From a virus, in IMG/VR virus record IMGVR_UViG_3300025127_000017, positions 1 through 64,000 of that record: a stretch of 64,000 nt of DNA; one strand, written 5' to 3'. The stretch's first letter is position 1. The number at the start of each line of letters is the position of its first letter. Of this stretch, positions 6,939-40,717 are shown piece after piece. Below the pieces are notes generated by a model. It was not told the DNA's origin and ran no database searches. It saw only the letters and a list, made by a program, of their open reading frames with translations. The position numbers were made by a program, and so were the translations under genes.

Positions 6939-7129
6939 GTAAAGAAATTAAAGAATTAAAAGCAGAAATAGAAAATTTGAAGCAAACAGTAAAGAGGCTT
7001 GAAAATGAAATAAGCCAACTTTACGAAGAGAATGTAACATTCGCAGACTTAGTTAAAGATATTAAAACTATCAAGCAGGAATTGATGCAATATACTGATG
7101 GTAAGATTTACTTTGATAATGCATGGTGA
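6935..7129 (+). CDS. Hypothetical coiled-coil protein (64 aa)
   Basis: The sequence is heptad-like (KELKAEIENLKQTVKRLENEISQL). Its stop overlaps the GGTGAT SD of the polB C-terminal fragment. Confidence 0.5.
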   Translation: MSKEIKELKAEIENLKQTVKRLENEISQLYEENVTFADLVKDIKTIKQELMQYTDGKIYFDNAW

Positions 7130-7133
7130 TACT

Positions 7134-8021
7134 ATGAAAGTAGTTTATGGACATACGGATTCAATCTATGTTCAGATTGAATCTATTGAAAAGGCTGAAT
7201 CAACAATCAAAGAGATTGAAGAATCGGTTCGTGAACACTTTCCTAATGTTTTAAATCTTGAACAACATCCTGTTGTCCTTGAATTTGAAAAGTATTATTC
7301 TGCATTAGGTGTTGGAACAACAAAGAATCGGAATGCAGGTTTAGTATCATGGGAAGATGGAGTTTGGCTTGATGAGCCTAAATTTACAATGACAGGTTTT
7401 ACTGCAAAGCGTGTTAGTGAAACAAAACTTGCTAAGGATGTTCAAACAACAGTATTGAAGATGTGGGTCGGACAAAAGACAATGGGAGAAATAAACAAGT
7501 ATCTTTCTGACAAATACGACGAAGTTATGGAAGGCAAAGTAAATACTTCTGATATTGTAAAACGTAGTCGTCTAAGAGAAGATAGAGTTATTCTTAAGTG
7601 TCCAGAATGTAAGAAGAAACACCACTTAAAAGAATGTATTAAAATTAAATGGTGTGATAAATGCGGAACAGAAACAGAACAGTTCGTAACATCTACTTAC
7701 AAAAGACCTGCAATCGGTTCGGGTATTGCAGGTATTCTTTATGCTTGGGAAAGATTAAATATGACCTTCGATGACTCATATCTATATCTCAAGGTTAAGA
7801 ACATACATGACACATATACTCATCCTTTGACGAAAGAAAAAAGAGAAGTAGAATATGTATCTGCAACAACGTATGATGATTTTAATAATTATACTCCAGA
7901 CTACAAGCATTATGCAGAACAAATAGTAAAGAAGGCTGAACCAATTTATCGAGCGATGGATTGGGATGTATCTTCGATAAGAACAGGAAAAATACAAATG
8001 AAATTAGACGAATGGTGGTAA
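7134..8021 (+). CDS. polB: Family-B DNA polymerase, C-terminal fragment (motif C plus thumb with a Cys4 finger)
   Basis: The fragment begins MKVVYGHTDSIYV, which is motif C (YGDTDS). A CPECKKK...CDKCG zinc finger follows. The ATG at 7134 lies after GGTGAT, and the track start at 7098 adds a non-polymerase extension. Confidence 0.9.
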   Translation: MKVVYGHTDSIYVQIESIEKAESTIKEIEESVREHFPNVLNLEQHPVVLEFEKYYSALGVGTTKNRNAGLVSWEDGVWLDEPKFTMTGFTAKRVSETKLAKDVQTTVLKMWVGQKTMGEINKYLSDKYDEVMEGKVNTSDIVKRSRLREDRVILKCPECKKKHHLKECIKIKWCDKCGTETEQFVTSTYKRPAIGSGIAGILYAWERLNMTFDDSYLYLKVKNIHDTYTHPLTKEKREVEYVSATTYDDFNNYTPDYKHYAEQIVKKAEPIYRAMDWDVSSIRTGKIQMKLDEWW

Positions 8022-15127: not shown

Positions 15128-15475
15128 TCATTCCACCTCTATTGTTAAGAATAGTTCTAAATCTTCGGTTGAAGAAAAAGGGCCGACTCCATCGAAATTA
15201 ACCCTTGCTAGAAGATTAGAACTAGAATCAAAAATACCAAACTCTCTAATTACTTTACCCGTCATTGAGGAAGCCGAACCGTCGAATATCGCTTGAACTT
15301 CAATCACATTTGTATCGGATTTAACTGCGGCAAATGTAGAGGTTGAAGTAGTTAAAGGAACATCTAAGGTTGTAGCGGCAGGACTTGTCGAATTACCCCC
15401 TTGTCCTATTTTACCATTGTTTATGGTAGTTCGTATGTTTGTTGCTACTAATTCTTTCAGTTTGTCTGTAATCAT
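15128..15475 (-). CDS. Hypothetical virion (tail-tip) protein, 115 aa
   Basis: It lies between the giant tail protein and the fiber and is coupled to both. Confidence 0.55.
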   Translation of the reverse strand: MITDKLKELVATNIRTTINNGKIGQGGNSTSPAATTLDVPLTTSTSTFAAVKSDTNVIEVQAIFDGSASSMTGKVIREFGIFDSSSNLLARVNFDGVGPFSSTEDLELFLTIEVE

Positions 15476-18400: not shown

Positions 18401-21400
18401 TAAAATGGTAATGCTCTTGTTTTGACACTATTTGTGTGAAATATAGTGTCTGTGAAGTTAGAACCAAATACTCCAACTTTTCCTCTCTCATCGTAATACC
18501 AATGTTTATCAGAAGAATTAGTTTTACCTCTTATAGTTACATTTGAACTTCCTGTTTTGGGCTTAAATTGATATACTTCGCTTAAATAGTTTATTTTAGA
18601 AACATTCTTTGCATAAGTATTTAATTGGTGAATAGCAATGCTGCTAGTTATTGGAAGGCCAGCAACCGCATTAAAGTAATTAAAATTACCCAAAGCCACA
18701 GAATTTAGTCTATACATAGGTTGTCCGAATTTTTTAAATATATCTTCATTTGTATTATGTGGATTTTGATGATTCAAAGGGACTGAACCTGTTGATGTTA
18801 TCTTAGGATGAGGCAATGTTATTATTTTACCTGTTGCTAAGTGTTTTCCGTTAATAAAAGATAGTTCTTGCATATCAGCATTTAAATGATAAATTGTTAT
18901 TCCAGCAGAATATGTAACGTCTCTATCTAAGTGAAATACTACTGAGTTTTGAGAACTAGTTTTTGTAAAACTTATAAATCTTAAAATGCCCATAAATATA
19001 TAATTTTCAGAATCTAATCTAAATACTGGCTCTCCAACTTTAGCATTTGTCCAAGCAGTTGAAGTAGTATTTGTAACTAAAAGATTTAATGCAAATGCTT
19101 TCGCTGTTGAACTAAATGTTTCTCTTGCTATCAATTCTCCTATTGCCGTTACCGAAGAATTTTCGTCAGTATTTAAAAATTTAGGGATTTTTCTTCCTAA
19201 AGTAATAGGAACATATGGTGCTAGTTCAATTTCAGTTATTCCTTCCTTGCTGTTAGTATTTACTACTTCAAAATCAATTAAAGTATTGACAGTATCAAAC
19301 GAAGAATCTGATTCACTACCAATTTCGTCTACAAATTTTGCTTGGAAAGCATTATCGTTTTTAATAGATATAGGGTCATTAATATGATAACCAATTGCTT
19401 TAGGATTGGTATTAATGCTACTTCCAACTAAATCGTTTCCTTCTGAACCATCAGACATTGTGATTTCTTTACCACTTGTAAAGAAAACTCCTTTTCCCGC
19501 AGAACCACTTAATGAAGTAGGATTTACTGATGCAAGATGAGATGAACTCAATGCTTTGTTAAATATATAATTTTTGTCTGTTTCTACATATACTCTTTCA
19601 GAATGAACTTTAGTTAATGAAGGAGTAAATGTTAGATTCCAATGTGCTGAACCATCAGGAACGGCAGTGAGAACTTCACCTATATATCCATTTACTGTAA
19701 ATAATCTATCTCCTACTAATGGAATAACTGTTAAAGAACTAGCAATAACTCCTGTATTTAGAGACGTTCCTCCTAAAGCAATTGTATAATTAACTGCTCT
19801 TATTTCACTTAATGTATTATATGGACTCAAAGTAGAATAAATAATATCTTCTGAAAAGGCAGTGTCTTTATTAATAATCGGCCCAAACAATTTACTAATG
19901 TCGCTTCTTCCAGATAGTTCTACATAATTTTGTGAATCTTCTTTATATGAATCAACCTTTTCAATTGTTCCAGAAAATCTTTCTACTTCTATGTGGTAAG
20001 AACCTAAAGAATATCTAAGTGAAGAATCAGAAGAATAACTTTGAGAATTAGAACTTAATGTAATTAGTCCATGAGTAGCATCAACAGCAGTTACAGACGA
20101 TTCAATAAACTCCATATCTTTTGACATAGTTTTAACATATAGTTCCGAACTCCTACCTGCAAGTAGATTGAATGAAGTTAGAATTGTATTATCTTGGTAA
20201 TTATAAGCCCTTCTCTGTAATGTTCCTGTTAAGGAAGTCAAACTGGTTGAATTAGTAAAAGAGGATTCTGTTTCTAATCTACTGTATTCTTCAAATTTAA
20301 TTACAGAAGATGTAATAATCGCACATATTAAAATTCTATTACCAATCCTAATCTCATCTCCTACATTAATAAAATTAGTTGCATCAGAATAATCAGTTAT
20401 TAAATTATATCTAGCATCACTAAAAGTTGTAATAAGAGAACCTAATGTAATTTTCATATCAACGAATTCATTCAAATCTCCTGTAAATACTCTATGTCTG
20501 ACTCTATACTTATCGAACTCAGTAATTTTGCTTGTAAGCATTCTACTAGGATTCATAATCTTGGTTTCACAAAAACCTCCACGATTTCCAATAGACTGTT
20601 CTAATTTATTATCAATTACGTTATCTAATACGTTGACTTTTGTTGGAGAAAAATCATAATGTAAATATCTGATTGGGCCTTCATTAACAATTTGAGAAGT
20701 TGGATTTATTAAATCATCATTATCTCTTCTAGCATTAGGAAAAGCATCGTCATAATCAGTATAGTCTAAACTGTTGATAGTATTACCTTCATTAGAAGTG
20801 TGTGTGCTTGGATTATCTAAATCTTTTAACTTATCAACTAAAGTCAATTGCATTGAATATTTGCTATAATCTAAAATTTTATTTGAAAACTCTTGTTCTG
20901 TGACAAATGTATATTCTTCTGAATTGGTATCTAGTGTAGTCGTACCCCCACTATCTGTTTTGTTCAGTCTAACAAAGTATTTTGTATTGTGGTCTAACTC
21001 ATTCTTTTTATTTAAAGAAGATTCTAGCAGATGAAATAATGGAGATGAAACAACAAGAGAGGCTTTTAGGTCTTGCTTAATACCTGCTGAAAAAGCAATT
21101 GCAGTAGTAGTTAATGCTGGGCCTTTAAATAACATAAACTTTGTATCTTTAGGTATTTCTTTACCTAATGCTGGTGTAAATTCAAAGGCATCTCCAACGA
21201 CATCTTCTGTAATGATGTCTGTTACTCTCGCAAAATGATGCTTTAGGTGGTCATCCGAATGTATCAAGACAAAGTAATGAAAGGTACTATCATAATCACC
21301 ACCTGTTAATTGAACACCTGTTGAAGTAATACTATCAAAACATTTGATTCTAAAACCCTTTGTAGTTTGTAAATTGTTTCTTTCTGTATTTTCACTAGAT

Positions 21401-21576
21401 GTTCCTACTTCTACAAAAGTTTCACTCGATGTAGAATCATCAGGATAAATTAAAGTGAATAATCTATCCGTAGAACCAAAACTGGTGTTCGATTCAATTA
21501 GAGGATTAGTAGGAGTTTTATATCCATTACCACTACTAAAAGTAGTTTCACCTTTTTGAAAGACCGTGATTGCCAT
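15472..21576 (-). CDS. Giant (2034 aa) tail-tip/baseplate-associated structural protein
   Basis: It is one uninterrupted ORF with a Ser/Thr/Asn-rich, beta-type composition. Its position downstream of the tape measure and Dit-like genes matches a Tal or central-fiber protein. Confidence 0.55.
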   Translation of the reverse strand: MAITVFQKGETTFSSGNGYKTPTNPLIESNTSFGSTDRLFTLIYPDDSTSSETFVEVGTSSENTERNNLQTTKGFRIKCFDSITSTGVQLTGGDYDSTFHYFVLIHSDDHLKHHFARVTDIITEDVVGDAFEFTPALGKEIPKDTKFMLFKGPALTTTAIAFSAGIKQDLKASLVVSSPLFHLLESSLNKKNELDHNTKYFVRLNKTDSGGTTTLDTNSEEYTFVTEQEFSNKILDYSKYSMQLTLVDKLKDLDNPSTHTSNEGNTINSLDYTDYDDAFPNARRDNDDLINPTSQIVNEGPIRYLHYDFSPTKVNVLDNVIDNKLEQSIGNRGGFCETKIMNPSRMLTSKITEFDKYRVRHRVFTGDLNEFVDMKITLGSLITTFSDARYNLITDYSDATNFINVGDEIRIGNRILICAIITSSVIKFEEYSRLETESSFTNSTSLTSLTGTLQRRAYNYQDNTILTSFNLLAGRSSELYVKTMSKDMEFIESSVTAVDATHGLITLSSNSQSYSSDSSLRYSLGSYHIEVERFSGTIEKVDSYKEDSQNYVELSGRSDISKLFGPIINKDTAFSEDIIYSTLSPYNTLSEIRAVNYTIALGGTSLNTGVIASSLTVIPLVGDRLFTVNGYIGEVLTAVPDGSAHWNLTFTPSLTKVHSERVYVETDKNYIFNKALSSSHLASVNPTSLSGSAGKGVFFTSGKEITMSDGSEGNDLVGSSINTNPKAIGYHINDPISIKNDNAFQAKFVDEIGSESDSSFDTVNTLIDFEVVNTNSKEGITEIELAPYVPITLGRKIPKFLNTDENSSVTAIGELIARETFSSTAKAFALNLLVTNTTSTAWTNAKVGEPVFRLDSENYIFMGILRFISFTKTSSQNSVVFHLDRDVTYSAGITIYHLNADMQELSFINGKHLATGKIITLPHPKITSTGSVPLNHQNPHNTNEDIFKKFGQPMYRLNSVALGNFNYFNAVAGLPITSSIAIHQLNTYAKNVSKINYLSEVYQFKPKTGSSNVTIRGKTNSSDKHWYYDERGKVGVFGSNFTDTIFHTNSVKTRALPFYGLSPLSDFNAHIFRKNALENTDNSFLRLFLYINSDILPYSSLRKDSLFNGSKDITNYNVLLLQDKSIEDNALGDETGNRIKLQDTNYSTNVITSSDFSNSIKRCGMMRLTEMCFDYAFNPFNPEKEIDIEQNVNSSTNLFTFYRTFAYTDIGTINVSSTLSQHGAGNTRVIVFNSAVSFSSSTLLVDARGNFIGTAPSASSSNNHTLASDVFYTGEDAALTTDNIFAVTQTGSHIPQIIVRGENLYGTRSSNLVKKHAGAVIPSLSQYGKTQGTAFSQNSNADISLPSDSEIFLPIRDGTAISSFSADTHPFRVFSGLISNIASDYYKGTIAVCLDRYDIEDGGKFKLEAGNVSDVLTTNDSTESFHIIKSNLHFKDFSNAIDTSANTHSDSIPFVADGIVLGFKCRLWVSSSSRTANTTLNSSNGTIRKNTMDATNANAFLEFVDLTGCYLIMEKDAVEGDTGTQTTVAYLNESIPEEIIYVISHEIDVSNHTNHVLITDKELTNDRAYRLMQPNEVCMYNFTPEDIVFNKLSSRYTKKANSNETYKNNSSYLYQQNIKDHRENEGILSMYVAVDIDKQTTDDYIVIRDIDKIYTELFPQENTYSLYASDGEHNKKISISVNRKQDTDKKYYSTFSETFFCKGIVSLSETFTVQSRGTLEIVPNRAYIGTTATIANETEELINELMEENNITFDLETQDYPLYLAPNYQGVDLFSAINFLLEQKDLTLFEENGTFKIKDRLANDFFKGIVLNETGEYQIFDFEESKNMFNFYNQITVYGRNHKKIRKDISSINKVGLKAFEVFNAELTTQEDVNKEASALLKLHSSSNKKLKITVGHSKISQIKVGDIINVEIPRENIPLSQFMVLQIEYLLTGLMVLELGKYSKGLEDRFADLIIQNKKINSQLRNESFKESESLDFLEEVKINQIRLFARKRTSSGTFKLGFGTTLNTGTNTLGHGVGTGITFTTLIDEELI

Positions 21577-29552: not shown

Positions 29553-31214
29553 TCACCTCAATGCTCTTTTTGTTACTCTTACGTTCTTTCTGAATAAATT
29601 AACTAATGAGTTAAAGATAGTCAATAAATTATTAGGAATTGTTCCTGCTTCACTTGCTTTTGGAAATCTTAATTTTCCTCTTGTTGCAGTTAATTCTTCT
29701 CCTTTAGTTGGATTAATTCTAACGATTAAAGTCAATCTCCATTCTTTTTTACCAAAATCAAATCTAAGTTTGTAAAAACTAAGTAGGTCATTGAATGGGT
29801 CGCCATTAATAACGTTTGTAACATAGTGAACTATTTCATCCTTTACATTGTCAGGAAGGTCTGCATCGCTTGTTTTAACTCCCCGTAGTATTTCTCCCCA
29901 ATTAGTTTCTTCTCCGTCTTTTCCTACAAAAGCAGAAGAATATTCAACAATTTTATCTCCGATTCTAATTCCTTCAATGCTAACTATCTCGTCTAATAGT
30001 TCTGACTTAAAATCATCAAGTTTTGTTTTATTCTTATATTTAGTAAATACAATAAAATCATTCAACTTTTTAAATGCTAATACCTTAGCATCAGCACCTT
30101 TTTCAGATTCTGCTTTTGCTTTTAATTTAGCATTACTTATTCCTTGCTTCTGTAATGCTGCAAATGTTTTATGCTTAATATATAAAACAATATTCTGCAT
30201 AGCATCATTTACTTCATTTTTTTCTGCCCATTCAGGATAACTCATAGCGTCTGTATCTTCGCCAAGTAGTTCTTCTTCATCGCCATCAATAGATTTTTTA
30301 TACTTCTGATACAAAGGTGCTAAATAATCTTCTTTAATAGAATCTGCAATTGTATCTAATGCTTCTTGGTATTCTAAAAATACAGAAGGAGCCTTTTTGT
30401 CTTTTATATCTATATCCTTATCCTTTGTAGTTTCTAAACCCTCAAACCAATCTGTGAAGAACTTATCTAGGTTTTTCAGAATTACCTTATCTTGGGAACT
30501 AAAACTAATCTCTTCATCATCTAATTCAATAGTAGTAGTTTTCTTTACTCCCATTTTTCCGTTAGCAACTTGTCTATTTTCTTTGAGTTCGCTTCTAACC
30601 CCAATACCGCTTTCAATGAGTTTCTTTCTTTTATTTAAAGGTCTATCTACAATTGATTCATCTAATTCAACAATATTGCCTTTTTTAGTAATTAACCCTT
30701 TAATGTATTCATCTTCCTCATCACCAAAACCTTCGGCAACTTTATCTAACTTTTTTCTTCTTTCTCCACCATCTGCACCAACCTGTTCATCTTTTTCATA
30801 AACAGGACTAATACTTTGTATGAAATCGTCATCCAATAATTTTTCTAAAGGCTGGTTTTCAATAAATGGTTTTATTTCCGTAGGAATACCGCTATCTTTT
30901 AATATTTTACCACTCTTAGACGCATCAGTTAATAAAAGTTCAAAAGTATCTCTAAGAAACTTTCTGTAACTTTCTTTCTGTTCTTGAGTAAATAGAGCAG
31001 TATTTCTTGAATTACCAATTAAATCTCTCAAATACCTCGCTCGAAAGTATTTCTTTTCTCCATTAATTTTTTCTTTAGTAGACGTTGCACCTTGAGAACG
31101 ATAAAATAGAAAATTGAAAAAGTTATCTAATAAAAACTTTTGGTCAATTTTCTGCCTTCTTCCATCATCTAAGATAATAGAGAAGGATTTGTTCTCATTG
31201 CTCACATTAACCAC
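29553..31214 (-). CDS. Hypothetical protein (553 aa, Lys/Glu/Asp-rich)
   Basis: It is a long ORF in the operon orientation. I recognised no motif. Confidence 0.6.
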   Translation of the reverse strand: MVNVSNENKSFSIILDDGRRQKIDQKFLLDNFFNFLFYRSQGATSTKEKINGEKKYFRARYLRDLIGNSRNTALFTQEQKESYRKFLRDTFELLLTDASKSGKILKDSGIPTEIKPFIENQPLEKLLDDDFIQSISPVYEKDEQVGADGGERRKKLDKVAEGFGDEEDEYIKGLITKKGNIVELDESIVDRPLNKRKKLIESGIGVRSELKENRQVANGKMGVKKTTTIELDDEEISFSSQDKVILKNLDKFFTDWFEGLETTKDKDIDIKDKKAPSVFLEYQEALDTIADSIKEDYLAPLYQKYKKSIDGDEEELLGEDTDAMSYPEWAEKNEVNDAMQNIVLYIKHKTFAALQKQGISNAKLKAKAESEKGADAKVLAFKKLNDFIVFTKYKNKTKLDDFKSELLDEIVSIEGIRIGDKIVEYSSAFVGKDGEETNWGEILRGVKTSDADLPDNVKDEIVHYVTNVINGDPFNDLLSFYKLRFDFGKKEWRLTLIVRINPTKGEELTATRGKLRFPKASEAGTIPNNLLTIFNSLVNLFRKNVRVTKRALR

Positions 31215-31858
31215 TTAGCCCATGCCGCACCCTTCTGAATTGCCGAACCTAAGCCTAATCCAGAAGTTGGTGGTTCATAACTCATTTGTCCTGTTTGTGG
31301 GTCAATCCAATAAGGGCGACCATATCCATCCGTTCCATTTGGAGGAATAGGATAACCTGTACCATTGTTCATAGCATGGTTCATTTGGTTAAATTGCTGC
31401 GTGTTTCCTGTTACGTTTGCTAATGCTGCCGTTGCAGAAATTTGTCCTGCACCTGCTGAGAACCCTTGAGATTCTAGGTACTGCTGTTTTGCAAGTTTTC
31501 GTTGATTAATGATTTCTGTGTTGATTGCAGTATCTAATAGATTCTTTAAATCTAAATCAATATTTTCTTGTGTAATGCGTTCAAACTCTCGCATAGCCTC
31601 TGAGTCAATTTTCATTCTATTTGTTGTAGAGTCTTGAACAAATGCTAACTTTCCTAACATTTGACTCATTACTCTTTCAATAACATCTTCCATTAACTTT
31701 TCAAGAGATGCTAAGAAAAGTTCTCCATGATACTGAAAGAACTCTTCAACGTGATTTTCTTGCAATGATAGTAAGTTATTGACTGTTTTAAAATTTGAAT
31801 CTGATTGTTGTTGAACTGCGTTTAACACTGTTCCATTACTTGTTCCGAACATTCCCAT
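31202..31858 (-). CDS. Hypothetical protein (218 aa)
   Basis: The ORF is in the operon orientation and overlaps the next gene by 13 nt. Confidence 0.55.
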   Translation of the reverse strand: MGMFGTSNGTVLNAVQQQSDSNFKTVNNLLSLQENHVEEFFQYHGELFLASLEKLMEDVIERVMSQMLGKLAFVQDSTTNRMKIDSEAMREFERITQENIDLDLKNLLDTAINTEIINQRKLAKQQYLESQGFSAGAGQISATAALANVTGNTQQFNQMNHAMNNGTGYPIPPNGTDGYGRPYWIDPQTGQMSYEPPTSGLGLGSAIQKGAAWAKWLM

Positions 31859-31860
31859 AT

Positions 31861-32523
31861 TTATTCCTCCTTAATCTTCAATAATACATCAAGTCTTTGA
31901 CTAATCGTTTTTAACTCCGATGTTAAGCGTAATACTTCGCTCTCTTTCGACTCATCCTGTGATACGGTTGGGGGCTTTATAACATATCCGACTGATGAGA
32001 GAGCAACAATATCCTCATTAGTGAGATTATAAATTGGCCCTGCTTTCATCATTTTAGGCATCTTTGCAGTAGGAATAAATCTTTTGAAATCTAGTCCATG
32101 TTCATCTGCAATAATCTCTTGTTGTAGCATTTCAAATTGTTTATGATGAGCAGCATGTTTAGGGCAATAAGTTCCTCTTAATGGCCTTCCACGTTCTACT
32201 CTATCTAATGGAATAGGAGGTCGTAAAAAATCCCCTGCTTCCCAAATATGATGCATTCCGCAAACAACACATCTTTCTTTGAGATTGAATTTATATCCGA
32301 ATTTTACAAAAATAAACTTCTTCTTTTCTGGTAGTAATACCTTTCTTAATTCCTTTAGTTTTTTCTTTGGTTTGAAATTATCAAACTTATATTCTTCGAT
32401 TGGCCCACTTGCTCTTGCCTGTTGTAATTTAGGCAAAAATCTGTTCGGTACATTCTGATTAACAGTATTGCCGACAGGTGCGCCATTTGTTCCTACTTGT
32501 TGTATAATGTTGTTCTGATACAT
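31861..32523 (-). CDS. Hypothetical Cys/His-rich protein (CVVCGMHH...YCPKHAAHH)
   Basis: The ATG at 32523 lies 6 nt after the GTPase stop. The track start at 32532 is a TTG. Confidence 0.55.
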   Translation of the reverse strand: MYQNNIIQQVGTNGAPVGNTVNQNVPNRFLPKLQQARASGPIEEYKFDNFKPKKKLKELRKVLLPEKKKFIFVKFGYKFNLKERCVVCGMHHIWEAGDFLRPPIPLDRVERGRPLRGTYCPKHAAHHKQFEMLQQEIIADEHGLDFKRFIPTAKMPKMMKAGPIYNLTNEDIVALSSVGYVIKPPTVSQDESKESEVLRLTSELKTISQRLDVLLKIKEE

Positions 32524-32528
32524 AATAA

Positions 32529-33191
32529 TCAATAGTCCTTAATCATTGTAAATATTCCTTGATAAACTGCTTCGGGTTCTGATTTTGCTGATACAATATA
32601 TTTATGCGTCGGTATTCCTACATCATTTAGTTTTTGCATACCGTATTTAAAAGGTTCAAAAATTGGATGCTTGTCAATCGGTGCATCGCTTTTGTATTTA
32701 TCTCCCCAAATATCATATTTGTTCGCCCAAATAGAAACTGCCATTGGATAATCTGCTTCTTTCTTTTTTCTTCCACTCGGCCATCTTTCATTTGTGATTG
32801 TATCAACTAAAAACTTCCATGCTACTTGATGGTCTAAATTACCGCCTTTATCTAAATGCCTATGGTCAATCATAAAAATAATGTATTTGACTTTTCTAGA
32901 CTGCATATCTTTAGCCCATTCTTTCCAATATATTGCTTCTCCGCCTATATCCGATGTTCTTAGAGTATTCATTTGTCCGTCCAATTTAATAGATTTTCTA
33001 GTTGCTCGATGACGACCAACGGTTCTTTTCTGTATTGTTGGTACTTCACCTCTTGTTCTTAATTGATGATGTAATGTAGTTTTCCCAACCATTGTTGCAC
33101 CATATACTCCAAAATTAATTGCATGAATCTTCTTATAAAAACCTAATATTGCTTCTCCGACTAAAATAGCAAAGCCTGTCATTAATGACAT
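32529..33191 (-). CDS. Small GTPase of the Arf/Sar/SR-beta-like class with an N-terminal hydrophobic anchor
   Basis: G1 is GATMVGKTT, switch I is VPTIQKRTVG (compare Arf PTIGFNVE) and G3 is SDIGGE. IIFMIDHRH follows, G4 is ANKYD and G5 is SAK. The N-terminus is MSLMTGFAILVGEAILGFY. The ATG at 33191 overlaps the upstream stop as TAATG, after AGTGAT. Confidence 0.75.
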   Translation of the reverse strand: MSLMTGFAILVGEAILGFYKKIHAINFGVYGATMVGKTTLHHQLRTRGEVPTIQKRTVGRHRATRKSIKLDGQMNTLRTSDIGGEAIYWKEWAKDMQSRKVKYIIFMIDHRHLDKGGNLDHQVAWKFLVDTITNERWPSGRKKKEADYPMAVSIWANKYDIWGDKYKSDAPIDKHPIFEPFKYGMQKLNDVGIPTHKYIVSAKSEPEAVYQGIFTMIKDY

Positions 33192-33481
33192 TAAACAATC
33201 ACTAATCCCTTTCCTTCCATCCGTTCCCAAAAAGTAATTGCTTCGCCTATCGGCATATGAACTAAGGGAATATCGTTAGTTTTAAATTCACTTTCTAAAT
33301 AATCAATAAATTCTTTTAAGTATTTTTCACCCAAACCTTTATTTCTATATCCCTTTTCTAAACCAAATTGACTAATTTGCCAATAAGTTCCATATTCTCC
33401 TTCAACTAATTCTGCTTCTCCATCACTTATCCTATCTTTAGAAATCCAAGAATATGTGCTTTTAAGAATATCTTTCCACAC
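33191..33481 (-). CDS. Mini GNAT-like protein (96 aa) with the MWKDILK leader
   Basis: It contains an acetyl-CoA motif A-like YRNKGLGEKYLKEF. It uses a GTG start. Confidence 0.45.
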   Translation of the reverse strand: MWKDILKSTYSWISKDRISDGEAELVEGEYGTYWQISQFGLEKGYRNKGLGEKYLKEFIDYLESEFKTNDIPLVHMPIGEAITFWERMEGKGLVIV

Positions 33482-33482
33482 A

Positions 33483-33701
33483 CTAATGCCCCCAAATTCC
33501 TTTTACTCTATCTATTAACCAACCCATTACATTAATATCAAAAACACCCATGATGTTTCCGATTAAAAATGCTGAAAGCGTAGCGCAAGTAGCCCAAAAC
33601 CACATTCTCATTTTCAAAAAGAGAATGTCTGCTGAATGCGCTCTTTGTGCATTGTAGGCATAATCTGAATCAGAAAAGCCTAACCAATCCGATACTACCA
33701 T
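33483..33701 (-). CDS. Small membrane protein (72 aa)
   Basis: It has a hydrophobic segment MWFWATCATLSAFLIGNIMGVF. Confidence 0.55.
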   Translation of the reverse strand: MVVSDWLGFSDSDYAYNAQRAHSADILFLKMRMWFWATCATLSAFLIGNIMGVFDINVMGWLIDRVKGIWGH

Positions 33702-33709: not shown

Positions 33710-34108
33710 CTATTGCAACGTAGTCAAGAAATCAGAAGAAACTGAGTTTTCTGTTTCATAAGACTGTGCGATAGGTGCTAATCCTGTATATGGAGAAAGG
33801 TTGTATGATTTAGCAGTATCTTGAAGTTTCTTTCTTTGTTCTTCATCTCTTGCCATTCTAGCCCAATAAGCACTAATCTTACGGTCTAATAACCACAATT
33901 CAATCTTATCATTGAGTGAAATATCAAAGAGGGCTTTCATACACATAATTGTTCCAACGGTAATAAGGCCAAATAGAACTGCGTGGGCTAAAGGAGTATA
34001 TGGGAAAGTAGTTCCATATGTTGCGTAAAAGAAAACATTAGCACCACTAACTGTTCCAACAAAAAGAATAGTCATAACTAGGCGAGTATCTGTACTTAAT
34101 GCTGGCAT
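33710..34108 (-). CDS. Membrane protein (132 aa, two TM segments plus a charged C-terminal tail)
   Basis: TM1 is LVMTILFVGTVSGANVFFYA and TM2 is LAHAVLFGLITVGTIMCM. The tail is charged (RMARDEEQRKK). Confidence 0.6.
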   Translation of the reverse strand: MPALSTDTRLVMTILFVGTVSGANVFFYATYGTTFPYTPLAHAVLFGLITVGTIMCMKALFDISLNDKIELWLLDRKISAYWARMARDEEQRKKLQDTAKSYNLSPYTGLAPIAQSYETENSVSSDFLTTLQ

Positions 34109-35560: not shown

Positions 35561-36895
35561 TCATTGAATGTTAGTAATCTTACCTTGACCCTTAAAGAAA
35601 GAACATCCGACTTCACCAATTGTTCGATACAATGCTCGGTTTCCGAGAGTACCTACACCAAATGGATTTCCATTCGCAATACCATCTTCAAAGTATTGAG
35701 TTGGCTTCATAACAGAAAGCCATAGATGGTCAGTATCGAGGAATAATAGGTCAGATAACTTTGTTGAAGCATTACCCGTTGTAGCCATGTCCTTAACAGG
35801 AATCAATGGAATATCATAGTATGTTGCAACTCTAAATCCAACTTCTTGACCCTTTGTTCCACGAACACCATTTACAGTAGGAACAATCTCCTTTCTGTCC
35901 ATGAATCGCTCTTGGCTTTGCAATAGGTCAGCAAGTGCTTGAATGGTATCATATCCAGTTAGAATAACCTTTGGTGAACCACCCGCAAGTCTTAGGTTTC
36001 TAATCATGTCATTAAGACGAGTTAGAGTCAAAGAACGAACATCTCCAGAAGCATATCCCGAACCAAAATCAACTTCAGCATCTAGGAAAGATGCAGCAGT
36101 AAATCGCTCATTGCCGTAAATTTGTCCTAATGCGTTAGAAGCAGAAGTAGTATCAGTAGCAATAACTCCACCATCAATAGCCAACAATTCTGCTCTTGAA
36201 GTAATAACCTTGTTTAACGAAGTGTAGTTGTTAGTAATGTTAGGCATAGCGGCAGATTCACCGAAATGCTCCAAAGGCATAACTAGCATCTTGTTTTGAA
36301 CTTCTGCGTGGTGTTTACCCATGTCTTCACGCATTTGCGCTCTAATATCGCCAATACCGTCATCAATCTGAGCCATTTCCATAGCCAATTCGCTGAAATC
36401 GAATTGATGAGCAACAACCTTTGGACTCATGTTTAATTGAGCATATGTTGGTGCAATTGGGCCAAGACCATCAGCAGCAGTCGATAAACCTGCATTTTCA
36501 GGTACGCCACCGATTAAATCTGCTCTTGGGTCATCAGAACCTAATTCTCCTAAAGAAGCAGTTCCCGAAGTATCGACAGAAAACAAGTTTCCGCTTCCAC
36601 CCGCAGGTCTTGACTTTAGAACTCTCCAACCGCTAGAAGAGTATGGTCGCTTTGAAATCATTGAAAGAGCATTTACTTCTCTATTCAACATAGACCATAC
36701 TTTTTGTCCGTAAACGACGTTGTATAGGGCTGAAACATCTGAAACGGCTGAACCGCTAAATGCTGGGCCTCCATCATGTCCTGTGTGAATGCCACCAACC
36801 ATTCCTGCTTGCTTAAGCAAAGAATTGCCAGCAAAAGTGCTTGTTCCGTATGTTTGTGCTTCTAAATCTGCAATAGTGTTAATATATCCAACCAT
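35561..36895 (-). CDS. Putative major capsid protein (HK97 fold expected)
   Basis: This 444-aa ORF begins 1 nt after the protease-scaffold gene, which is the canonical order. I could not verify any sequence motif by eye. Confidence 0.6.
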   Translation of the reverse strand: MVGYINTIADLEAQTYGTSTFAGNSLLKQAGMVGGIHTGHDGGPAFSGSAVSDVSALYNVVYGQKVWSMLNREVNALSMISKRPYSSSGWRVLKSRPAGGSGNLFSVDTSGTASLGELGSDDPRADLIGGVPENAGLSTAADGLGPIAPTYAQLNMSPKVVAHQFDFSELAMEMAQIDDGIGDIRAQMREDMGKHHAEVQNKMLVMPLEHFGESAAMPNITNNYTSLNKVITSRAELLAIDGGVIATDTTSASNALGQIYGNERFTAASFLDAEVDFGSGYASGDVRSLTLTRLNDMIRNLRLAGGSPKVILTGYDTIQALADLLQSQERFMDRKEIVPTVNGVRGTKGQEVGFRVATYYDIPLIPVKDMATTGNASTKLSDLLFLDTDHLWLSVMKPTQYFEDGIANGNPFGVGTLGNRALYRTIGEVGCSFFKGQGKITNIQ

Positions 36896-36896: not shown

Positions 36897-38177
36897 TTAA
36901 TAACCTCCTACCATCTTGTGAATGTCCGACCAATCCATTTCAGCCAAATCATCAATACTTGGGAGTTCTACTTTAGCGTCTTCTTGGGCCTTTAGGATTG
37001 TTTCCTTTTCAGCCGTCAAAGACTTTCTTAATTGTGTAAATTCATCCTTAAGGGATGCAATCTCGCTTTGTGCGTCATATTGTGACTTTGCGAGAGTGTT
37101 TTCTCTTGAAGCCTTTTCTCTTTCAAATCGGTCTTCAAAGGACTTTTGTAAGTTGTCGTAAGCCAACTTCTCAAGTTGTTCTTGACGGTATGCCTCATAA
37201 GCCTTCTCAATGTTACCAACAGATAAATCAAGGGTATCTAATTCACTGTTGTTAAAAGCCTTAACAACGGGCATATCGGAAGAAGTTGGTCTTCCACCGC
37301 TAATGACGATTCTATCAGCAGGTTCACCGATTTGATTACCTGCACCATCTAATGTGCGAACATAGGCTTTTTCTGCTTCTTCTTTGTATTCCATCATTTC
37401 TTCTTCGTCTGTTGGAATATCTTGCATTTCCATCATTTCGTCTTCCTTTTCATCCATCATTTCATGGCTTCCTTTTCCGTACATGCCTTTTTCCTCCATC
37501 ATTTCCATCGTTCTAGGATTCATGGCTTTTTCATCCATCATTTCATCCTCTTTCTTTTCTTCTTCTTCTTTTCTCAACGTATTGACTTCTTCCATCAATG
37601 CGTCTAATTCTTCTAATGCTTTCGCTAATTTTTCTGACATATTTCCTTCTCCTTTATCTTGTTTTAAAATATCAAATCTCGCTTCGGGGTTAATTCCTTT
37701 TTCGCATATTGTTACTTCGTGCAGTTCTAATTTACTAATCTCGTTGTATTCACCCATTTCTGAATGTTTTTTCTTAGATTTCTGTAACGCCTGTCCTCCA
37801 ATGCTAAACGACCTTAATGACCCTTTGCGAATTCCTCTACCAACTTCTTTGGCTTTTTCTATATCATCTCTTAATTTGATTACAACAAAGAATCCAACAT
37901 CATCTACTTCTGTTTTCCACAATCTCCCTGTTTTGTCTCTATATGAATCTACTACTTCTCCGACTTGAACATTTGAATGATTTGTCATTACATTTCTATA
38001 TTCAGGCTTTTCCATGAATTTCTTAACGGCTTCATTTAATGCTTTTAAGGTTATTAAATCATTTTGCTTATCTACAATTTCAATGCTTGCATATCCACCA
38101 ATCATCAGTTCATCGCTTTTGATAATGTTAAACTCATCATGTCTTGTTGCCATGATACTGATGCTCATGTCCTTCAA
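36897..38177 (-). CDS. HK97-family prohead protease fused to a scaffolding domain
   Basis: The N-terminal S78-like domain contains GGYASIEIVDKQND, TNHSNVQVGEV and SFSIGG. A Met/Glu-rich linker and a long coiled-coil C-terminal half follow. Confidence 0.75.
   Translation of the reverse strand: MKDMSISIMATRHDEFNIIKSDELMIGGYASIEIVDKQNDLITLKALNEAVKKFMEKPEYRNVMTNHSNVQVGEVVDSYRDKTGRLWKTEVDDVGFFVVIKLRDDIEKAKEVGRGIRKGSLRSFSIGGQALQKSKKKHSEMGEYNEISKLELHEVTICEKGINPEARFDILKQDKGEGNMSEKLAKALEELDALMEEVNTLRKEEEEKKEDEMMDEKAMNPRTMEMMEEKGMYGKGSHEMMDEKEDEMMEMQDIPTDEEEMMEYKEEAEKAYVRTLDGAGNQIGEPADRIVISGGRPTSSDMPVVKAFNNSELDTLDLSVGNIEKAYEAYRQEQLEKLAYDNLQKSFEDRFEREKASRENTLAKSQYDAQSEIASLKDEFTQLRKSLTAEKETILKAQEDAKVELPSIDDLAEMDWSDIHKMVGGY
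37391..37544 (-). repeat. Five exact copies of CCATCATTTC (plus strand), encoding E-M-M-[DE] repeats in the protease-scaffold linker
   Basis: The copies are at 37391, 37430, 37454, 37496 and 37535. Confidence 0.8.
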
Positions 38178-38215: not shown

Positions 38216-40717
38216 TTACTCTTGTGGTATGGTTAATTCGTTAAACCTATCCTCATAGATGTTCCAGATTCCCTCATCGTTTTCCTTATCAGCAGGTGTT
38301 TGCTTAAATCCAGTCCATGCAAGCCACATTTTTTTATCTTTCACAGGTAATACTCTAATGTGTAATTTTGTCTCGAACTTGTTTCCTTCTAGGAAATATT
38401 CGTGATAACCATGTCTTTGTAGTCCTAATTCAATTTTACCAGAATCAATTATCTTATCTTTAGAAACATTCTTTGAAACTTCCGCAGGATATTTACCTGC
38501 CTTTCCAAATAAATCGAAGATATTATCTTCTTCATTAAGTTCAATATACCAATGCATTGTTTCTCCACCAACGGATATTGTAAAGTTTAAATTATCATCT
38601 TCTCTTAAGTAAATCTTAAAATTACCTTCACGGTATTTTTCTGGAGTTTTATATGCTTTTAACATTGTTGGTTCTTTAATAACTTTATCATCCTCAGAAA
38701 ATAACTTTTTAGTTTTCATATCAAAAGCAATACCGTCTCTATTTTCAAACCAATCCTTGACTCTATTTAATTTACTTTCCAATATGTCTTCATAAGTAGA
38801 TTTATGATTTTTGACTAAGAAGTTGTGTATTTCTTTTGGAGTTTTAGAACCGTTTTCTTTTAAATGATTAAATACTATTTGAGTTAACTGTGATTGTTTT
38901 GTTTTCATAATTTCTTCTGCTTGTGCCTTCCACATATCAATATCAATCAATGCGTTTTTTGACATAAGGTTACTTTCTTCAAAACCATAAATAGTAAAAC
39001 CATCTAAATCAGATTTAATAATTACATTAGTTTCTCCGTGAATATGGTCTGTAACAATCATTCCTTTTTCTAACGCCTTAACATCATAATTTAAGGATTT
39101 CTTAGTATCTTGTGAAAGCATTTCCAATGTAACGATTTTATCAGGATATTCAACTTCGGGAACTTCGATAACCTTTGCAGAAAACAAAGTGTATCTATCT
39201 CCATTCTTTTTAACTTCATCAACCTTAACTCGAACAATATCCCCGACATCTACATCTATTTTAGTATTCAATGCTTTCCCAACATCCATGTATGTAGTTC
39301 CTTCAATTTTAGAATAAAACTTCCCTTCTCCTTCGGTTGGCCCTGCTCCCAATGTATATGAATTTAAATTTGATTTTGTTGTTTTCTTGTCAAGGACGAT
39401 TAAATCTAAATCAACAAACTTCTTCCACTTAATCCATTTTGGATTCTTTCTTGTGCCTATGTAGTATGTTGAAGTCATGTCTTTGATAACCACACCTTCG
39501 GATGTAGGCATATCCATAATCTCCTTTGAATACTCTTCTACATCCTTCAAGTTATCAGCAGTTCTTGTATCTTTCTTTGATGGAAATGCTATTGCTTCTG
39601 TCGAATGCATTGAATAGTTGTTAAATAATGTATTAATTCTATTATCAAGTTCTTCTTCTATTAATTCCTGTTCATTATGTCGCATAATATCAAAAACGTG
39701 CGCTTTTAACTTAGCATCTGGATATTTGTTTTTAAATACATAAGCAATAGTATCAGCACGATGTAATGCTTCATCTCCATCAAACAGAATTAACTCAGCA
39801 TCAAGAATACAATCTCCATACTTTTTCTTTTTGAGTTCTTCGACTTGTTCCTTACACTTTTCAGATATATCCTTTTCATTATATGAAAAGACCCTAACAT
39901 TGTTATCTATCTTATGAATCTGTATTCTCATACCATCATACTTTTCTTGAACAAGGTAGTTTCCTGAGAAGCCCTTTAATTCATTCATGTCATCAATATC
40001 AAAGATTCTATACATTGGTTTGTTCGGAGTAATAAAATCGCTTTTAGATTTTTGCTCAGACTTTTCAATACCATCAATTTCCTTCAAGTCCTTTAAATCT
40101 TCTTTTGAGTATTTGGAGAAAAATAACGTTTCTAATATCTCTAAGGCAGCCTTAACTTTGCTTTCTACCTTTTTTGAGTCTTTATCGTCGCCATACTGTT
40201 CGATAATATACAAGGGAATGTCCTCTTCATCTAGGTCAAGTCCTTCCAACCCATCAGTTATCGTGTCGGCTTCCATGTCTTTAATGCTCCAAACTTCTTT
40301 TGGAAGTGCTTTATCGTCATTTCTTAAAGCATAGTGAACAAATTTAACCATTGTTTCTGGAGAAGAGAGTAATCCTTCAAGAACATTCCCTTTGTATTTT
40401 CTTGCGAATGGGTCTGAAATTAAATCAGAACTGAATCGCATTTCTTTAATACCATTGTAAATCTTTTCAGCGATACTACTTGTAGGGTCTTTTGCTTCTT
40501 TGTTTTCTAATTCGTTTTCTTGAACAAACTTTTTCATTTCTTTGCTAAGTTCGTTCAGTTGCTCATAGATTTCTCTAATGTCATCAATTGCTTTACGCCA
40601 CCTATTCCCATATTCTTTGGGGTCGGTGCGAGCAGATAGATAAGCGACTCTTGTTTTCTCAAAAAGACGTATAATCTCTTCAGAAGAATCTTTATCCTTT
40701 TCAATGAGAAGAGGCAT
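38216..40717 (-). CDS. ATP-dependent DNA ligase with large N- and C-terminal extensions (833 aa)
   Basis: Motif I is EKYDGMR, motif III is ILDAELILF, motif IIIa is HVFDIM, motif IV is EGVVIKD and motif V is KWIKWKK. Confidence 0.85.
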   Translation of the reverse strand: MPLLIEKDKDSSEEIIRLFEKTRVAYLSARTDPKEYGNRWRKAIDDIREIYEQLNELSKEMKKFVQENELENKEAKDPTSSIAEKIYNGIKEMRFSSDLISDPFARKYKGNVLEGLLSSPETMVKFVHYALRNDDKALPKEVWSIKDMEADTITDGLEGLDLDEEDIPLYIIEQYGDDKDSKKVESKVKAALEILETLFFSKYSKEDLKDLKEIDGIEKSEQKSKSDFITPNKPMYRIFDIDDMNELKGFSGNYLVQEKYDGMRIQIHKIDNNVRVFSYNEKDISEKCKEQVEELKKKKYGDCILDAELILFDGDEALHRADTIAYVFKNKYPDAKLKAHVFDIMRHNEQELIEEELDNRINTLFNNYSMHSTEAIAFPSKKDTRTADNLKDVEEYSKEIMDMPTSEGVVIKDMTSTYYIGTRKNPKWIKWKKFVDLDLIVLDKKTTKSNLNSYTLGAGPTEGEGKFYSKIEGTTYMDVGKALNTKIDVDVGDIVRVKVDEVKKNGDRYTLFSAKVIEVPEVEYPDKIVTLEMLSQDTKKSLNYDVKALEKGMIVTDHIHGETNVIIKSDLDGFTIYGFEESNLMSKNALIDIDMWKAQAEEIMKTKQSQLTQIVFNHLKENGSKTPKEIHNFLVKNHKSTYEDILESKLNRVKDWFENRDGIAFDMKTKKLFSEDDKVIKEPTMLKAYKTPEKYREGNFKIYLREDDNLNFTISVGGETMHWYIELNEEDNIFDLFGKAGKYPAEVSKNVSKDKIIDSGKIELGLQRHGYHEYFLEGNKFETKLHIRVLPVKDKKMWLAWTGFKQTPADKENDEGIWNIYEDRFNELTIPQE

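Follow-up and report, generated by a model that had tools for sequence, protein, structure and literature searches.

The window analyzed here, a stretch of 64,000 nucleotides, is from a magrovirus, a tailed virus of marine archaea, and its minus strand carries a gene for a small GTPase surrounded by four companion genes and one variable insert (Table 1). The preliminary description gave the extent of the reading frame exactly, 32529..33191, but not its strand: the plus-strand frame over this interval is riddled with stop codons, and it is the minus-strand translation that returns every one of the quoted G-motif strings. The ATG at 33191 is favored as the start over a TTG further upstream at 33230, because about 120 homologs of 217-230 aa begin with MS(L/I/V), and because this ATG overlaps the stop of the preceding ORF as TAATG.

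Table 1. Positions of the GTPase gene, its motifs and the genes around it in the window.
Feature	Coordinates	Strand	Basis or remark
Small GTPase gene, 220 aa, Arf/Sar-like, cassette center	32529..33191	minus	ORF, family, motifs, profiles, AF2
N-terminal hydrophobic/amphipathic helix, predicted, residues 2-22, then KK; SLMTGFAILVGEAILGFYKKI	33126..33188	minus	AF2, hydropathy
G1 / P-loop GATMVGKTT	33075..33101	minus	alignment, translation
Switch I region PTIQKRTVG, conserved Thr T57	33015..33041	minus	'RT' dipeptide kept in both clades
G3 / switch II DIGGE...W92 (Arf/Sar-type DxGGx(6)W)	32916..32951	minus	D81, G84 and W92 invariant
DIGGE string alone	32937-32951	minus	translation
IIFMIDHRH string	32856-32882	minus	translation
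G4 NKYD, guanine specificity	32712..32723	minus	N157 and K158 invariant, D160 at least 90%
G5 SAK	32583..32591	minus	61/61 clade 1; clade 2 variant A-T-[KR]
Gene A, 132 aa, two TM and charged helical C-terminal tail	33710..34108	minus	KD19 peaks at residues 10 and 43
Gene B, 72 aa, single TM	33483..33701	minus	KD19 peak at residue 45
Variable insert, 96-aa ORF, GNAT motif-A-like RNKGLGEKYL	33191..33481	minus	Pfam Acetyltransf_1, E = 0.005
Gene D, 220 aa, basic N-terminal region, C85...G-R-x-x-R-G-T-Y-C120-P-x-H123	31861..32523	minus	alignment, linkage
Gene E, 218 aa, helical, Q/N/G-rich	31202..31858	minus	linkage, hhalign

The nucleotide-binding motifs are retained over a very wide range of divergence. 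Across a 21-sequence alignment with identities down to 17%, residues G31, G36, K37, D81, G84, D109, N157 and K158 are invariant, and, taken as whole motifs, G1 GxxxxGKT, G3 DxxG, G4 NKxD and the Arf/Sar-type Trp remain invariant even in relatives that share as little as about 17-30% identity. GxxxxGKT, DxxGE, NKxD, SAK and W92 are kept in 61/61 non-redundant sequences of clade 1, to which the window belongs, while in clade 2 the P-loop (as GxxxxGK[ST], 61/61 in clade 1) and NKxD are each found in 69/73. G3 and G4, on whose conservation the preliminary description had made the assignment hinge, are thus invariant among the homologs. Judged from these alignments, the motif set is far beyond chance, and the invariant NKxD together with SAK argues for guanine-nucleotide binding being real.

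The switch regions and their surroundings carry the Arf flavor of the protein, with clear departures from it. The hydrophobic segment IIFMIDHRH was rightly likened to its Arf counterpart, being a hydrophobic beta4 that ends in Asp, with IIFMID aligned to ILIYVID of Arl3. Switch II of the Arf family reads DxGGQ followed by a conserved Trp, and the HMM alignment sets the viral DIGGE...W92 against DIGGQ...W of Arl3 and DLGGQ...W of GerdArfR1. The position of the catalytic Gln (E85) is occupied by Glu in 61/61 clade-1 GTPases, and among the 73 of clade 2 by Q in 44, E in 18, D in 6 and H in 3; because Glu stands in place of the catalytic Gln throughout the window clade, the chemistry of GTP hydrolysis is uncertain. 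At switch I, the string VPTIQKRTVG is present as quoted, but the Thr conserved across clades is T57, in the 'RT' of KRTVG, and not T52 of 'VPT'. T57 is the candidate for the G2 Thr, which in Ras-superfamily GTPases coordinates Mg2+. In the window protein this region consists of KRTVG and a 5-residue insertion, which the alignment places between T57 and beta2, and it does not match the Arf motif PT(I/W)G(F/H); an Arf-like PT[ILV]G at this position is limited to P0161, P0171 and P0176, all of them distant relatives.

Ahead of the G domain, a helix followed by basic residues is predicted in both clades. AF2 models it in the window protein with a pLDDT of 60-66, and its hydropathy (KD17 = 1.74, KD19 = 1.58) and an invariant Glu13 (E13) make it borderline as a TM segment, as it is in clade 1 generally (KD17 = 1.7-2.0). 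In clade 2 it is amphipathic instead (KD17 0.8-1.0, muH 0.18-0.28), with a KD17 comparable to that of the Sar1 helix. Of the hydrophobic N-terminal anchor proposed earlier, the helix itself is therefore borne out by prediction, but an SRbeta-like TM anchor is only borderline here and is replaced by an amphipathic helix in clade 2, and for these reasons the segment resembles the helices of Arf, Sar and ArvA more than that of SRbeta. An amphipathic N-terminal helix before the G domain is a hallmark of the Arf family (bioRxiv 10.1101/2024.02.28.582541), and by prediction the viral GTPase possesses it.

Profile and structure searches, the check named in the preliminary description, place the protein among the Ras-superfamily small GTPases, nearest to Arf/Arl/Sar/ArfR, and not among kinases or ABC-type ATPases. 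A profile search of the PDB matched Arl3 over the full length at E 2e-10; when the profile was built from viral members only, the best match was GerdArfR1 (8OUN), an Asgard Arf carrying an N-terminal amphipathic helix, at 2.7e-6, followed by Arl8 and Arl10; and distant family members match Pfam Arf at 1.9e-15. The AF2 model (pLDDT 89.5, pTM 0.85) shows the order b1-a1-b2-b3-a2-b4-a3-b5-a4-b6-a5, which is the G-domain fold of six strands and five helices. Foldseek returned more than 1400 small-GTPase matches to this model, with probability 1.0 to Rab1, Arf6, Rab6 and Arl, and with the highest target-normalized TM-scores for Arf6 (0.79) and Arl8/Arl6 (0.77).

Taken one at a time, the viral sequences stay below curated thresholds. 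The window protein scores 13.5 bits with Pfam Ras (cut-off 21.6), 21.9 bits with NCBIfam small_GTP (cut-off 42.5) and 15.8 bits with Pfam SRPRB (E = 0.009, cut-off 25); it does not match Pfam Arf (PF00025), which is matched by 4/20 viral members at E 0.0048 or worse. The best single-sequence Pfam match is MMR_HSR1 (E = 0.0035), found in 12/20 members, and single-sequence phmmer searches of PHROGs and the PDB gave nothing informative for the GTPase. The viral GTPase is thus a member of the Ras superfamily, a membership that profile and fold evidence carries, and since no single viral member reaches any curated Pfam or NCBIfam cut-off, sequence and model suggest that it be called Arf-like rather than a proven member of the Arf family.

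The GTPase gene is central in a conserved cassette that encodes a 2-TM protein (A), a 1-TM protein (B), the GTPase, a Cys/His protein (D) and a helical, Q-rich protein (E). These five genes are near-absolutely linked, and the cassette moves as a unit. Gene A lies upstream of the GTPase gene at 76/76 clade-1 loci and has a positional and topological counterpart at 71/71 clade-2 loci; gene B is present by position at 76/76 and 68/71, gene D at 57/58 and 81/81, and gene E at 58/58 and 81/81 loci of clades 1 and 2, respectively. Genes A, D and E also occur in L001, a third lineage. The D proteins of the two clades are homologous (hhalign 96.4%, E = 1.2e-9), and so are the E proteins (65%, E = 6e-5), but hhalign does not support homology of A or of B between the clades (2.6% and 1%), so that their correspondence is a positional and topological analogy only.

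Gene D begins 5 nt past the GTPase stop, and its family comprises 1014 proteins, every one annotated as hypothetical. D had no match among Pfam and PDB profiles; its AF2 model is poor and of low confidence (pLDDT 55), and a Foldseek search with it found none below E = 5. A conserved zinc finger in D is weakened as a candidate, as C88, the second Cys of a CxxC, is Asp in clade 2, and L001 is without C120 and H123. For E, Pfam and PDB profiles gave no significant match, and they lend no support to an ESCRT-III/PspA-like or coat-like protein. Searches of Pfam and the PDB, and for D also Foldseek, detected no resemblance of D or E to GAPs, GEFs, coat proteins, ArvB or ArvC.

The membrane-protein neighbors noted earlier are A and B, two small proteins encoded immediately upstream of the GTPase in the conserved order. 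The 96-aa ORF, whose stop forms the TAATG overlap, lies outside the conserved cassette and occurs in only about 6/84 loci; it is weakly like Csx20 and GNAT, and variable accessory inserts concentrate at both flanks of the GTPase gene. The wider position is also as first described, with the MCP (35561-36895) and protease (36897-38177) genes upstream and those for a minor tail protein, TAC and the tape measure downstream. Intergenic gaps measure -13 to 51 nt throughout, from the protease and MCP genes to a 434-aa gene, and the GTPase gene is in the late/morphogenesis operon.

That the GTPase is virus-encoded is confirmed by its distribution. The family numbers at least 388 proteins, with relatives on 247 and another 127 IMG/VR contigs, and its sole GTDB match is a mis-binned 12-kb viral fragment. 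The gene is core in magroviruses, being conserved in 34/34 loci sampled through the capsid gene (MCP). The cassette likewise belongs to the core of the late operon in magroviruses and in clade 2, a related group of marine tailed archaeal viruses. Its dN/dS is about 0.07, the adjacent genes having values of 0.11-0.16, and its GC content is that of the surrounding genome. Nothing similar to the family was found in PHROGs or, by tblastn, in 50,697 phage records; a repeat homolog search with a profile recovered the same close clade only, and viral scans with P0134 and P0161 as queries gave no matches. No GTPase is mentioned in the main texts searched on magroviruses and archaeal tailed viruses, in the ICTV Aoguangviridae profile or in some of the supplementary files.

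Set beside cellular Arf-type proteins, the viral GTPase shares with Arf, Arl, Sar1 and ArfR its top profile and fold matches, a helix of about 20 residues with basic residues directly ahead of beta1, a DxGGx switch II with the invariant Trp at Arf/Sar spacing, and NKxD and SAK; like Sar1, Arl8 and ArfR, it is without a Gly2 myristoylation site. However, it differs from Arf in falling under the Pfam Arf threshold, in having RTVG and an insertion at switch I where Arf has PTIGFN, in the Glu that the window clade has for the catalytic Gln, in longer alpha3-beta5 and G4-alpha4 loops (220 aa versus about 180), and in partner genes unrelated to known ArfGAPs and ArfGEFs. ArfRs are almost exclusive to Asgard archaea (bioRxiv 10.1101/2024.02.28.582541), whereas the GTPase reported here comes from a virus whose archaeal host is not Asgard.

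The best functional analogy for the viral cassette, as far as a comparison by description may reach, would be the euryarchaeal ArvA system. ArvA, ArvB and ArvC of H. volcanii (HVO_3014-3012) drive membrane vesiculation and budding in archaea without ESCRT; ArvA, a small GTPase of about 213 aa, carries the annotation PF01926 although HHpred places it closest to Arf, it has an N-terminal amphipathic helix, and its operon encodes two small partners, of which one is Zn-binding (Zn-ribbon) and a proposed GAP (PMC10927574). The Poseidoniales are absent from the list of ArvA-containing genomes in the same study (PMC10927574), and a review has speculated that archaeal viruses could exploit an ArvA-type GTPase for budding (PMC10791045). 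The two systems differ in that D and E proteins from three viral lineages have no Pfam match to DUF2072/DUF2073 (ArvC/ArvB) at E up to 1, which set aside D and E as ArvB/ArvC, and in that the viral cassette additionally contains two TM proteins.

Few archaeal viruses of the surface ocean are as abundant as magroviruses, whose hosts are uncultured. We know of no established holin/endolysin-type system for tailed archaeal viruses; the archaeal egress routes that have been listed are only VAPs, budding and undefined membrane disruption (PMC10791045). We propose that the Arf-like GTPase and its cassette most likely form a late-expressed, GTP-switched membrane module that releases virions or builds a membrane assembly site, a tentative reading to which we assign a probability of roughly 0.45. 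The membrane-directed role in assembly or egress suggested in the preliminary description is in this respect plausible from its context, namely the late operon and the membrane-protein neighbors. In this proposal, the GTPase would be a nucleotide switch that binds membranes and is of the Arf/Sar1/ArvA type; in its GTP state, the N-terminal helix could insert into the cytoplasmic membrane of the host. Recruitment of the GTPase would perhaps be through the cytoplasmic tails of the co-encoded membrane proteins A and B, and D and/or E could serve as GAP- or GEF-like regulators or as effectors. The module would then, late in infection, remodel or breach the membrane to release virions or, alternatively, build a membrane-bound assembly site. 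We infer for this module a GTP cycle, binding to the membrane, physical association with the neighboring proteins and a role in egress. The cassette suggests that magroviruses supply a GTP-driven membrane switch of their own, possibly to release virions. More doubtful, though possible, is that a fully self-contained GTP-driven membrane-remodeling machine, in which two membrane receptors and two regulators or effectors work with the GTPase, mediates release from hosts that are without ArvA by the criteria of PMC10927574. In that case, it would be the first egress system of any prokaryotic virus to be based on a small GTPase, and the family would hold a large stock of Arf-like GTPases outside the Asgard archaea, all with the hallmark membrane helix at the N-terminus.

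As a core and constrained unit with an Arf/Sar-like GTPase and two small membrane proteins, the cassette is a testable candidate for a late membrane-acting function. It bears on GTPase-driven vesiculation in Euryarchaeota, as represented by ArvA, and the uncharacterized D (1014 members) and E families may be new GTPase regulators or effectors.

It is rather unlikely that the cassette is instead a membrane-associated morphogenesis factor, that is, a platform or chaperone for head-tail joining or tail assembly with no membrane remodeling for exit. In the window clade a single, tightly packed operon does hold the cassette between the MCP gene, with its small connector-size ORFs, on one side and the tail genes on the other, but the clade-2 cassette follows a giant ORF about 8 kb upstream of TerL. 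Therefore, the position among head and tail genes is not conserved. None of the cassette proteins matches a PHROG structural family.

An SRbeta-like targeting device, wherein a TM-anchored GTPase inserts or positions A, B or other viral membrane proteins, seems improbable to us. The viral GTPase resembles SRbeta in being Arf-related, in its hydrophobic N-terminal segment, which in the window clade is borderline TM, and in having a residue other than Gln after DxxG; its gene adjoins those of TM proteins, and weak SRPRB matches extend to 5/20 members (best 9e-4). However, all these scores are under the cut-off, the clade-2 helix with its low KD17 is amphipathic and not TM-like, and no partner such as SRalpha, SRX or a longin-like protein could be detected. 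SRbeta is, as far as we know, a protein of eukaryotes only, and we know of no use of it in archaea.

We likewise give little credence to a switch at the membrane for host take-over, superinfection exclusion or anti-defense, although the variable-insert hot spots on both flanks are common for accessory and counter-defense loci and the 96-aa insert has its weak Csx20 and GNAT likeness. The gene itself is strictly core in the MCP-sampled loci, under strong purifying selection and located in a late structural operon, and no PADLOC family matches any cassette protein, so a defense-system identity was set aside. Finally, we consider it very improbable that the protein is an Era/EngB/Der-type GTPase associated with ribosomes or translation, or a pseudo-GTPase that binds nucleotides and serves only as a scaffold. 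The top-scoring MMR_HSR1 match spans only the generic G1-G3 half, whereas full-length profile alignments, like the fold, match Arf, Arl and Rab; a KH or other RNA-binding domain is absent, and ArvA is likewise mis-annotated as PF01926. The Glu in place of the catalytic Gln would suit a pseudo-GTPase, but the invariant NKxD and SAK speak for true guanine-nucleotide binding.

Beyond the proposed membrane switch module itself, the cassette bears on how Arf-type membrane switches arose and where they occur; among prokaryotes, they have so far been described as almost exclusive to Asgard archaea. In BFVD, the sole viral structural analogs are Rab/Ras/Ran GTPases of Nucleocytoviricota, including Edafosvirus, Pithovirus, Tupanvirus and Klosneuvirus (E 1e-9 to 1e-6). 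Those are recent captures from eukaryotes by viruses of eukaryotes, whereas the family reported here is highly divergent, is carried almost wholly on viral-type contigs and belongs to a fixed cassette of tailed archaeal viruses. Arf GTPases have also been reported on a putative integrated mobile element of the Asgard Atabeyarchaeia (PMC11529989), which resembles the present case in that Arf-type GTPases are borne by an archaeal mobile element. However, the Atabeyarchaeia proteins belong to the Arf clade proper, sharing more than 25-35% identity with Arfs of Asgard archaea and eukaryotes; their host is an Asgard archaeon, the element that carries them is uncertain, and they are not part of a conserved virion-module cassette. 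Among the distant relatives of the magrovirus GTPase, most lie on short contigs with uninformative context, and one, P0176, sits in a bacterial chromosomal context.

The preliminary description had claimed a small GTPase at 32529-33191; these coordinates are correct, although the gene lies on the minus strand, as the plus strand there offers a reading frame full of stops. The strings quoted for it, namely SLMTGFAILVGEAILGFYKKI, GATMVGKTT, PTIQKRTVG, DIGGE, IIFMIDHRH, NKYD and SAK, are all found at the expected places of the translation, and the observation as a whole is thus confirmed. Since approximately 120 close homologues of 217-230 aa start with MS(L/I/V), and the ATG at 33191 overlaps the stop of the upstream 96-aa ORF as TAATG, this ATG is the true start. 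In an alignment including divergent members (A1), which reaches down to 17% identity, G31, G36, K37, D81, G84, D109, N157 and K158 are invariant and T38, T39, W92 and D160 nearly invariant, so spanning G1, G3, G4 and a Trp after switch II, whose spacing equals that in the Arl3 and GerdArfR1 alignments. The GC content near the gene is that of the rest of the genome.

With the single sequence as query, Pfam MMR_HSR1 (E = 0.0035), SRPRB (E = 0.009) and Ras (E = 0.05) were matched below threshold, NCBIfam small_GTP reached 21.9 of the 42.5 bits required, and PHROGs and a phmmer search of the PDB gave nothing informative; the protein stays below the curated thresholds of every named family. The A1 profile, however, matched Arl3 best in the PDB (2e-10, full-length alignment), followed by Rab33B, KRas and Sar1. 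When the profile was rebuilt from the viral clades only (A4), to remove the bias of the most divergent members, the best match was 8OUN at 2.7e-6, the crystal structure of full-length GerdArfR1, an Asgard Arf-family GTPase, with the N-terminal amphipathic helix included; Arl8/Arl10 and Rab33B came next. Two divergent relatives, P0161 and P0171, matched Pfam Arf directly (best E-value 1.9e-15), and P0161 matched mini-G-alpha and Arl3/Arl2 in the PDB. The AlphaFold2 model (pLDDT 89.5, pTM 0.85) has the canonical small-GTPase topology with a helix, residues 2-22, in front; with it, Foldseek retrieved >1400 small-GTPase structures, led by Rab1 and Arf6 when ranked by E-value and by Arf6 (0.79), Arl8/Arl10B (0.77) and Arl6 (0.76-0.77) when ranked by target-normalised TM-score.

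As judged from profiles and predicted fold, the protein is a guanine-specific Ras-superfamily GTPase nearest to the Arf/Arl/Sar/ArfR branch, and we put the probability that it is a real Arf-like GTPase at about 0.9. This supports the earlier interpretation, although formal family membership and the proposed N-terminal anchor call for caution. Compared with canonical Arf, Glu replaces the catalytic Gln in 61/61 clade-1 sequences (the window's own clade), while Q, E, D or H occupies this position in the second virus clade (clade 2); the switch I sequence is R-T57-V-G with an insertion instead of PTIGFN, and both the alpha3-beta5 loop and the G4-alpha4 loop are extended.

Although large, with 388 proteins in a 90%-clustered database, the family is narrow: a set of 1.84 billion representatives contains only 64 of its clusters at E up to 1e-3. 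Clade-1 relatives occur on 247 IMG/VR contigs, and clade-2 relatives, 30-34% identical, on 127 contigs of up to 118 kb. The sole GTDB match is a 12.2-kb contig of a 'Maricaulis sp.' MAG (NZMJ01000024.1), which carries the ligase-domain protein, protease, MCP, cassette, D and E; as this is the same viral block, the contig almost certainly derives from a virus and was wrongly assigned to an alphaproteobacterial MAG. When, to avoid bias, related loci were sampled through the MCP rather than the GTPase, counting only those with enough downstream sequence, the conservation survey called for at the outset found the GTPase in 34/34, 1.6-2.4 kb after the MCP. Its median pairwise dN/dS is 0.07 and that of its neighbours higher, at 0.11-0.16, values that are approximate because dS, at 1.3-1.7, is near saturation. 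Between the clades, the GTPase (~33% identity) and TerL (~40%) are comparably conserved. The most distant detectable relative, P0176 (locus L170, 5801-6553; 17% identity), overlaps a 264-aa ORF downstream of it and lies in a bacterial chromosomal context of ribosomal proteins S6, S18 and L9 and DnaB; therefore, bacteria may contain cellular relatives of the family.

The window has the magrovirus/Aoguangviridae-type layout (PMC5434244, PMC10768690), with a split family-B DNA polymerase, TerL, portal, prohead protease, HK97-type MCP, minor tail protein, tail assembly chaperone and tape measure protein. The ligase-domain protein is encoded inside the structural module, with the portal region on one side and the protease on the other, in agreement with the embedded ligase described for magrovirus groups A and B. 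A 221-aa protein has ~40% identical counterparts in 81 clade-2 loci, <10 kb from their GTPase, and its spread across both clades equals that of TerL and the GTPase.

Window features and cassette genes, with linkage to the GTPase in each clade
Feature	Coordinates	Strand	Description	Clade 1	Clade 2
Family-B DNA polymerase	4178-5839 and 7098-8021	+	two ORFs with others between		
Large ORF	15472-21576	minus	2034 aa, tail/baseplate region		
Cassette E	31202-31858	minus	218 aa, helical, Q-rich	58/58	81/81
GTPase	32529..33230, internal ATG at 33191	minus	from ORF calling		
96-aa ORF	33191-33481	minus	variable insert		
Ligase-domain protein	38216-40717	minus	833 aa, ATP-dependent DNA ligase domain (PF01068, 3e-28)		
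221-aa protein	58618-59283	minus			
Cassette A			132 aa, two TM segments, charged tail	76/76	71/71
Cassette B			72 aa, one TM segment	76/76	68/71
Cassette D			220 aa, Cys/His protein	57/58	81/81

Gene order around the GTPase is fixed in ~80 clade-1 loci: ligase-domain protein, protease, MCP, small ORFs, A, B, a variable insert, GTPase, a variable insert, D, E and, further on, tail genes. Profile-profile comparison (hhalign) of the clades supported homology of the GTPase (99.9%, E = 3.3e-31), D (96.4%, E = 1.2e-9) and E (65%, E = 6.1e-5), but not of A (2.6%) or B (1.1%), which are therefore positional and topological counterparts only. Clade-2 HMMs also detect A, D and E in L001, a third lineage whose GTPase is 31-38% identical. 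The clade-1 cassette lies between head and tail genes, whereas that of clade 2 has a giant ORF (2200-3000 aa; e.g. L097 2136-9107) immediately upstream and is located ~8 kb upstream of TerL; from these different locations, the cassette moves as a unit. Because intergenic spacing from the protease/MCP through a 434-aa ORF is -13 to 51 nt in the window, the cassette is probably co-transcribed with the late genes.

The N-terminal segment of the GTPase is a helix predicted at lower confidence (pLDDT 60-66). In clade 1 its hydropathy (KD17 1.74-2.0; KD19 = 1.58 in the window protein) is borderline for a TM segment, with Glu13 invariant, whereas the clade-2 helix (KD17 0.8-1.0) is clearly not TM-like and resembles that of Sar1 (0.74). 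Of the claimed hydrophobic anchor, the hydrophobic helix therefore stands and an SRbeta-type anchor is not established; the family-wide feature is a helix of the Arf/Sar/ArvA type, hydrophobic to amphipathic, with basic residues after it.

Based on these findings, the best-supported reading is that the cassette would be a GTP-switched membrane module expressed late. In one of its nucleotide states, the GTPase could attach to the membrane by the N-terminal helix; A, built like a small hairpin membrane protein whose charged tail would be cytoplasmic, and B could supply the membrane address or the membrane-active part; and D and E could regulate the GTPase or execute its output. A specific role in egress or membrane remodelling is tentative, somewhat short of an even chance, and is favoured because the cassette is mobile relative to head and tail genes, encodes two small membrane proteins, is core and sits in the late operon. 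A membrane assembly platform is less favoured given that mobility, as is SRbeta-like targeting, to which the borderline clade-1 helix would be suited and the clade-2 helix not. A host take-over switch is likewise less favoured, given that the gene is core and sits in the late operon, and so is a translation-type GTPase or pseudo-GTPase, given the Arf-like profile matches and invariant G motifs, the replaced catalytic Gln notwithstanding.

Functionally, the closest precedent is Haloferax volcanii ArvA, an Arf-like GTPase annotated PF01926 with an N-terminal amphipathic helix, which is required for extracellular vesicle formation and shares its operon with ArvB and with ArvC, a Zn-ribbon protein proposed to be a GAP (PMC10927574); its exploitation by archaeal viruses for budding has already been speculated (PMC10791045). 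As the genome list of the ArvA paper names Thermoplasmatota 51 times and Poseidoniales never (PMC10927574), the virus may supply a function without host equivalent.

The viral protein is a new, divergent Arf-like small GTPase. One 72% identical homologue, gp088 of Poseidoniales virus YSH_150918, is hypothetical in GenBank; PHROGs holds no such GTPase family; and no GTPase is mentioned in the main texts of the magrovirus papers PMC5434244, PMC10160649 (nor its supplementary files) and PMC11706807, in that of PMC8651126 on archaeal tailed viruses, or in the full ICTV profile (PMC10768690). Some members are labelled 'GTPase SAR1 family protein' by the JGI automatic pipeline, every viral small GTPase known in BFVD comes from a giant virus of eukaryotes, and a putative mobile element of Asgard archaea has been noted to carry Arf genes (PMC11529989). 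The setting is also new, a core five-gene cassette with uncharacterised partners in abundant marine archaeal tailed viruses.

Both GTPase flanks are hot spots for variable inserts. The 96-aa ORF, found in only ~6/84 related loci, contains RNKGLGEKYL, a string like GNAT motif A (Pfam Acetyltransf_1, E = 0.005), and weakly matches Csx20 of PADLOC (E = 4e-6); a mini-acetyltransferase beside the GTPase would be curious, since membrane targeting of some eukaryotic Arf-like GTPases requires N-terminal acetylation. In L001 (9241-9999), a 252-aa protein with a run of ~35 consecutive Asp is inserted just upstream of the GTPase. D and E had no relatives in Pfam, PDB, PADLOC or Foldseek searches. The D family (1014 members, all unannotated; model unreliable, pLDDT 55) combines a basic N-terminal region with a conserved C85 ... 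G-R-x-x-R-G-T-Y-C120-P-x-H123, and a zinc site is not secure because Asp replaces the second Cys of the CxxC in clade 2. In the window, the last ~45 residues of E form a clade-specific C-terminal extension, GRPYWIDPQTGQMSYEPP...AAWAKWLM, with a weak WW-domain-like match (E = 0.028) and an amphipathic aromatic tail.
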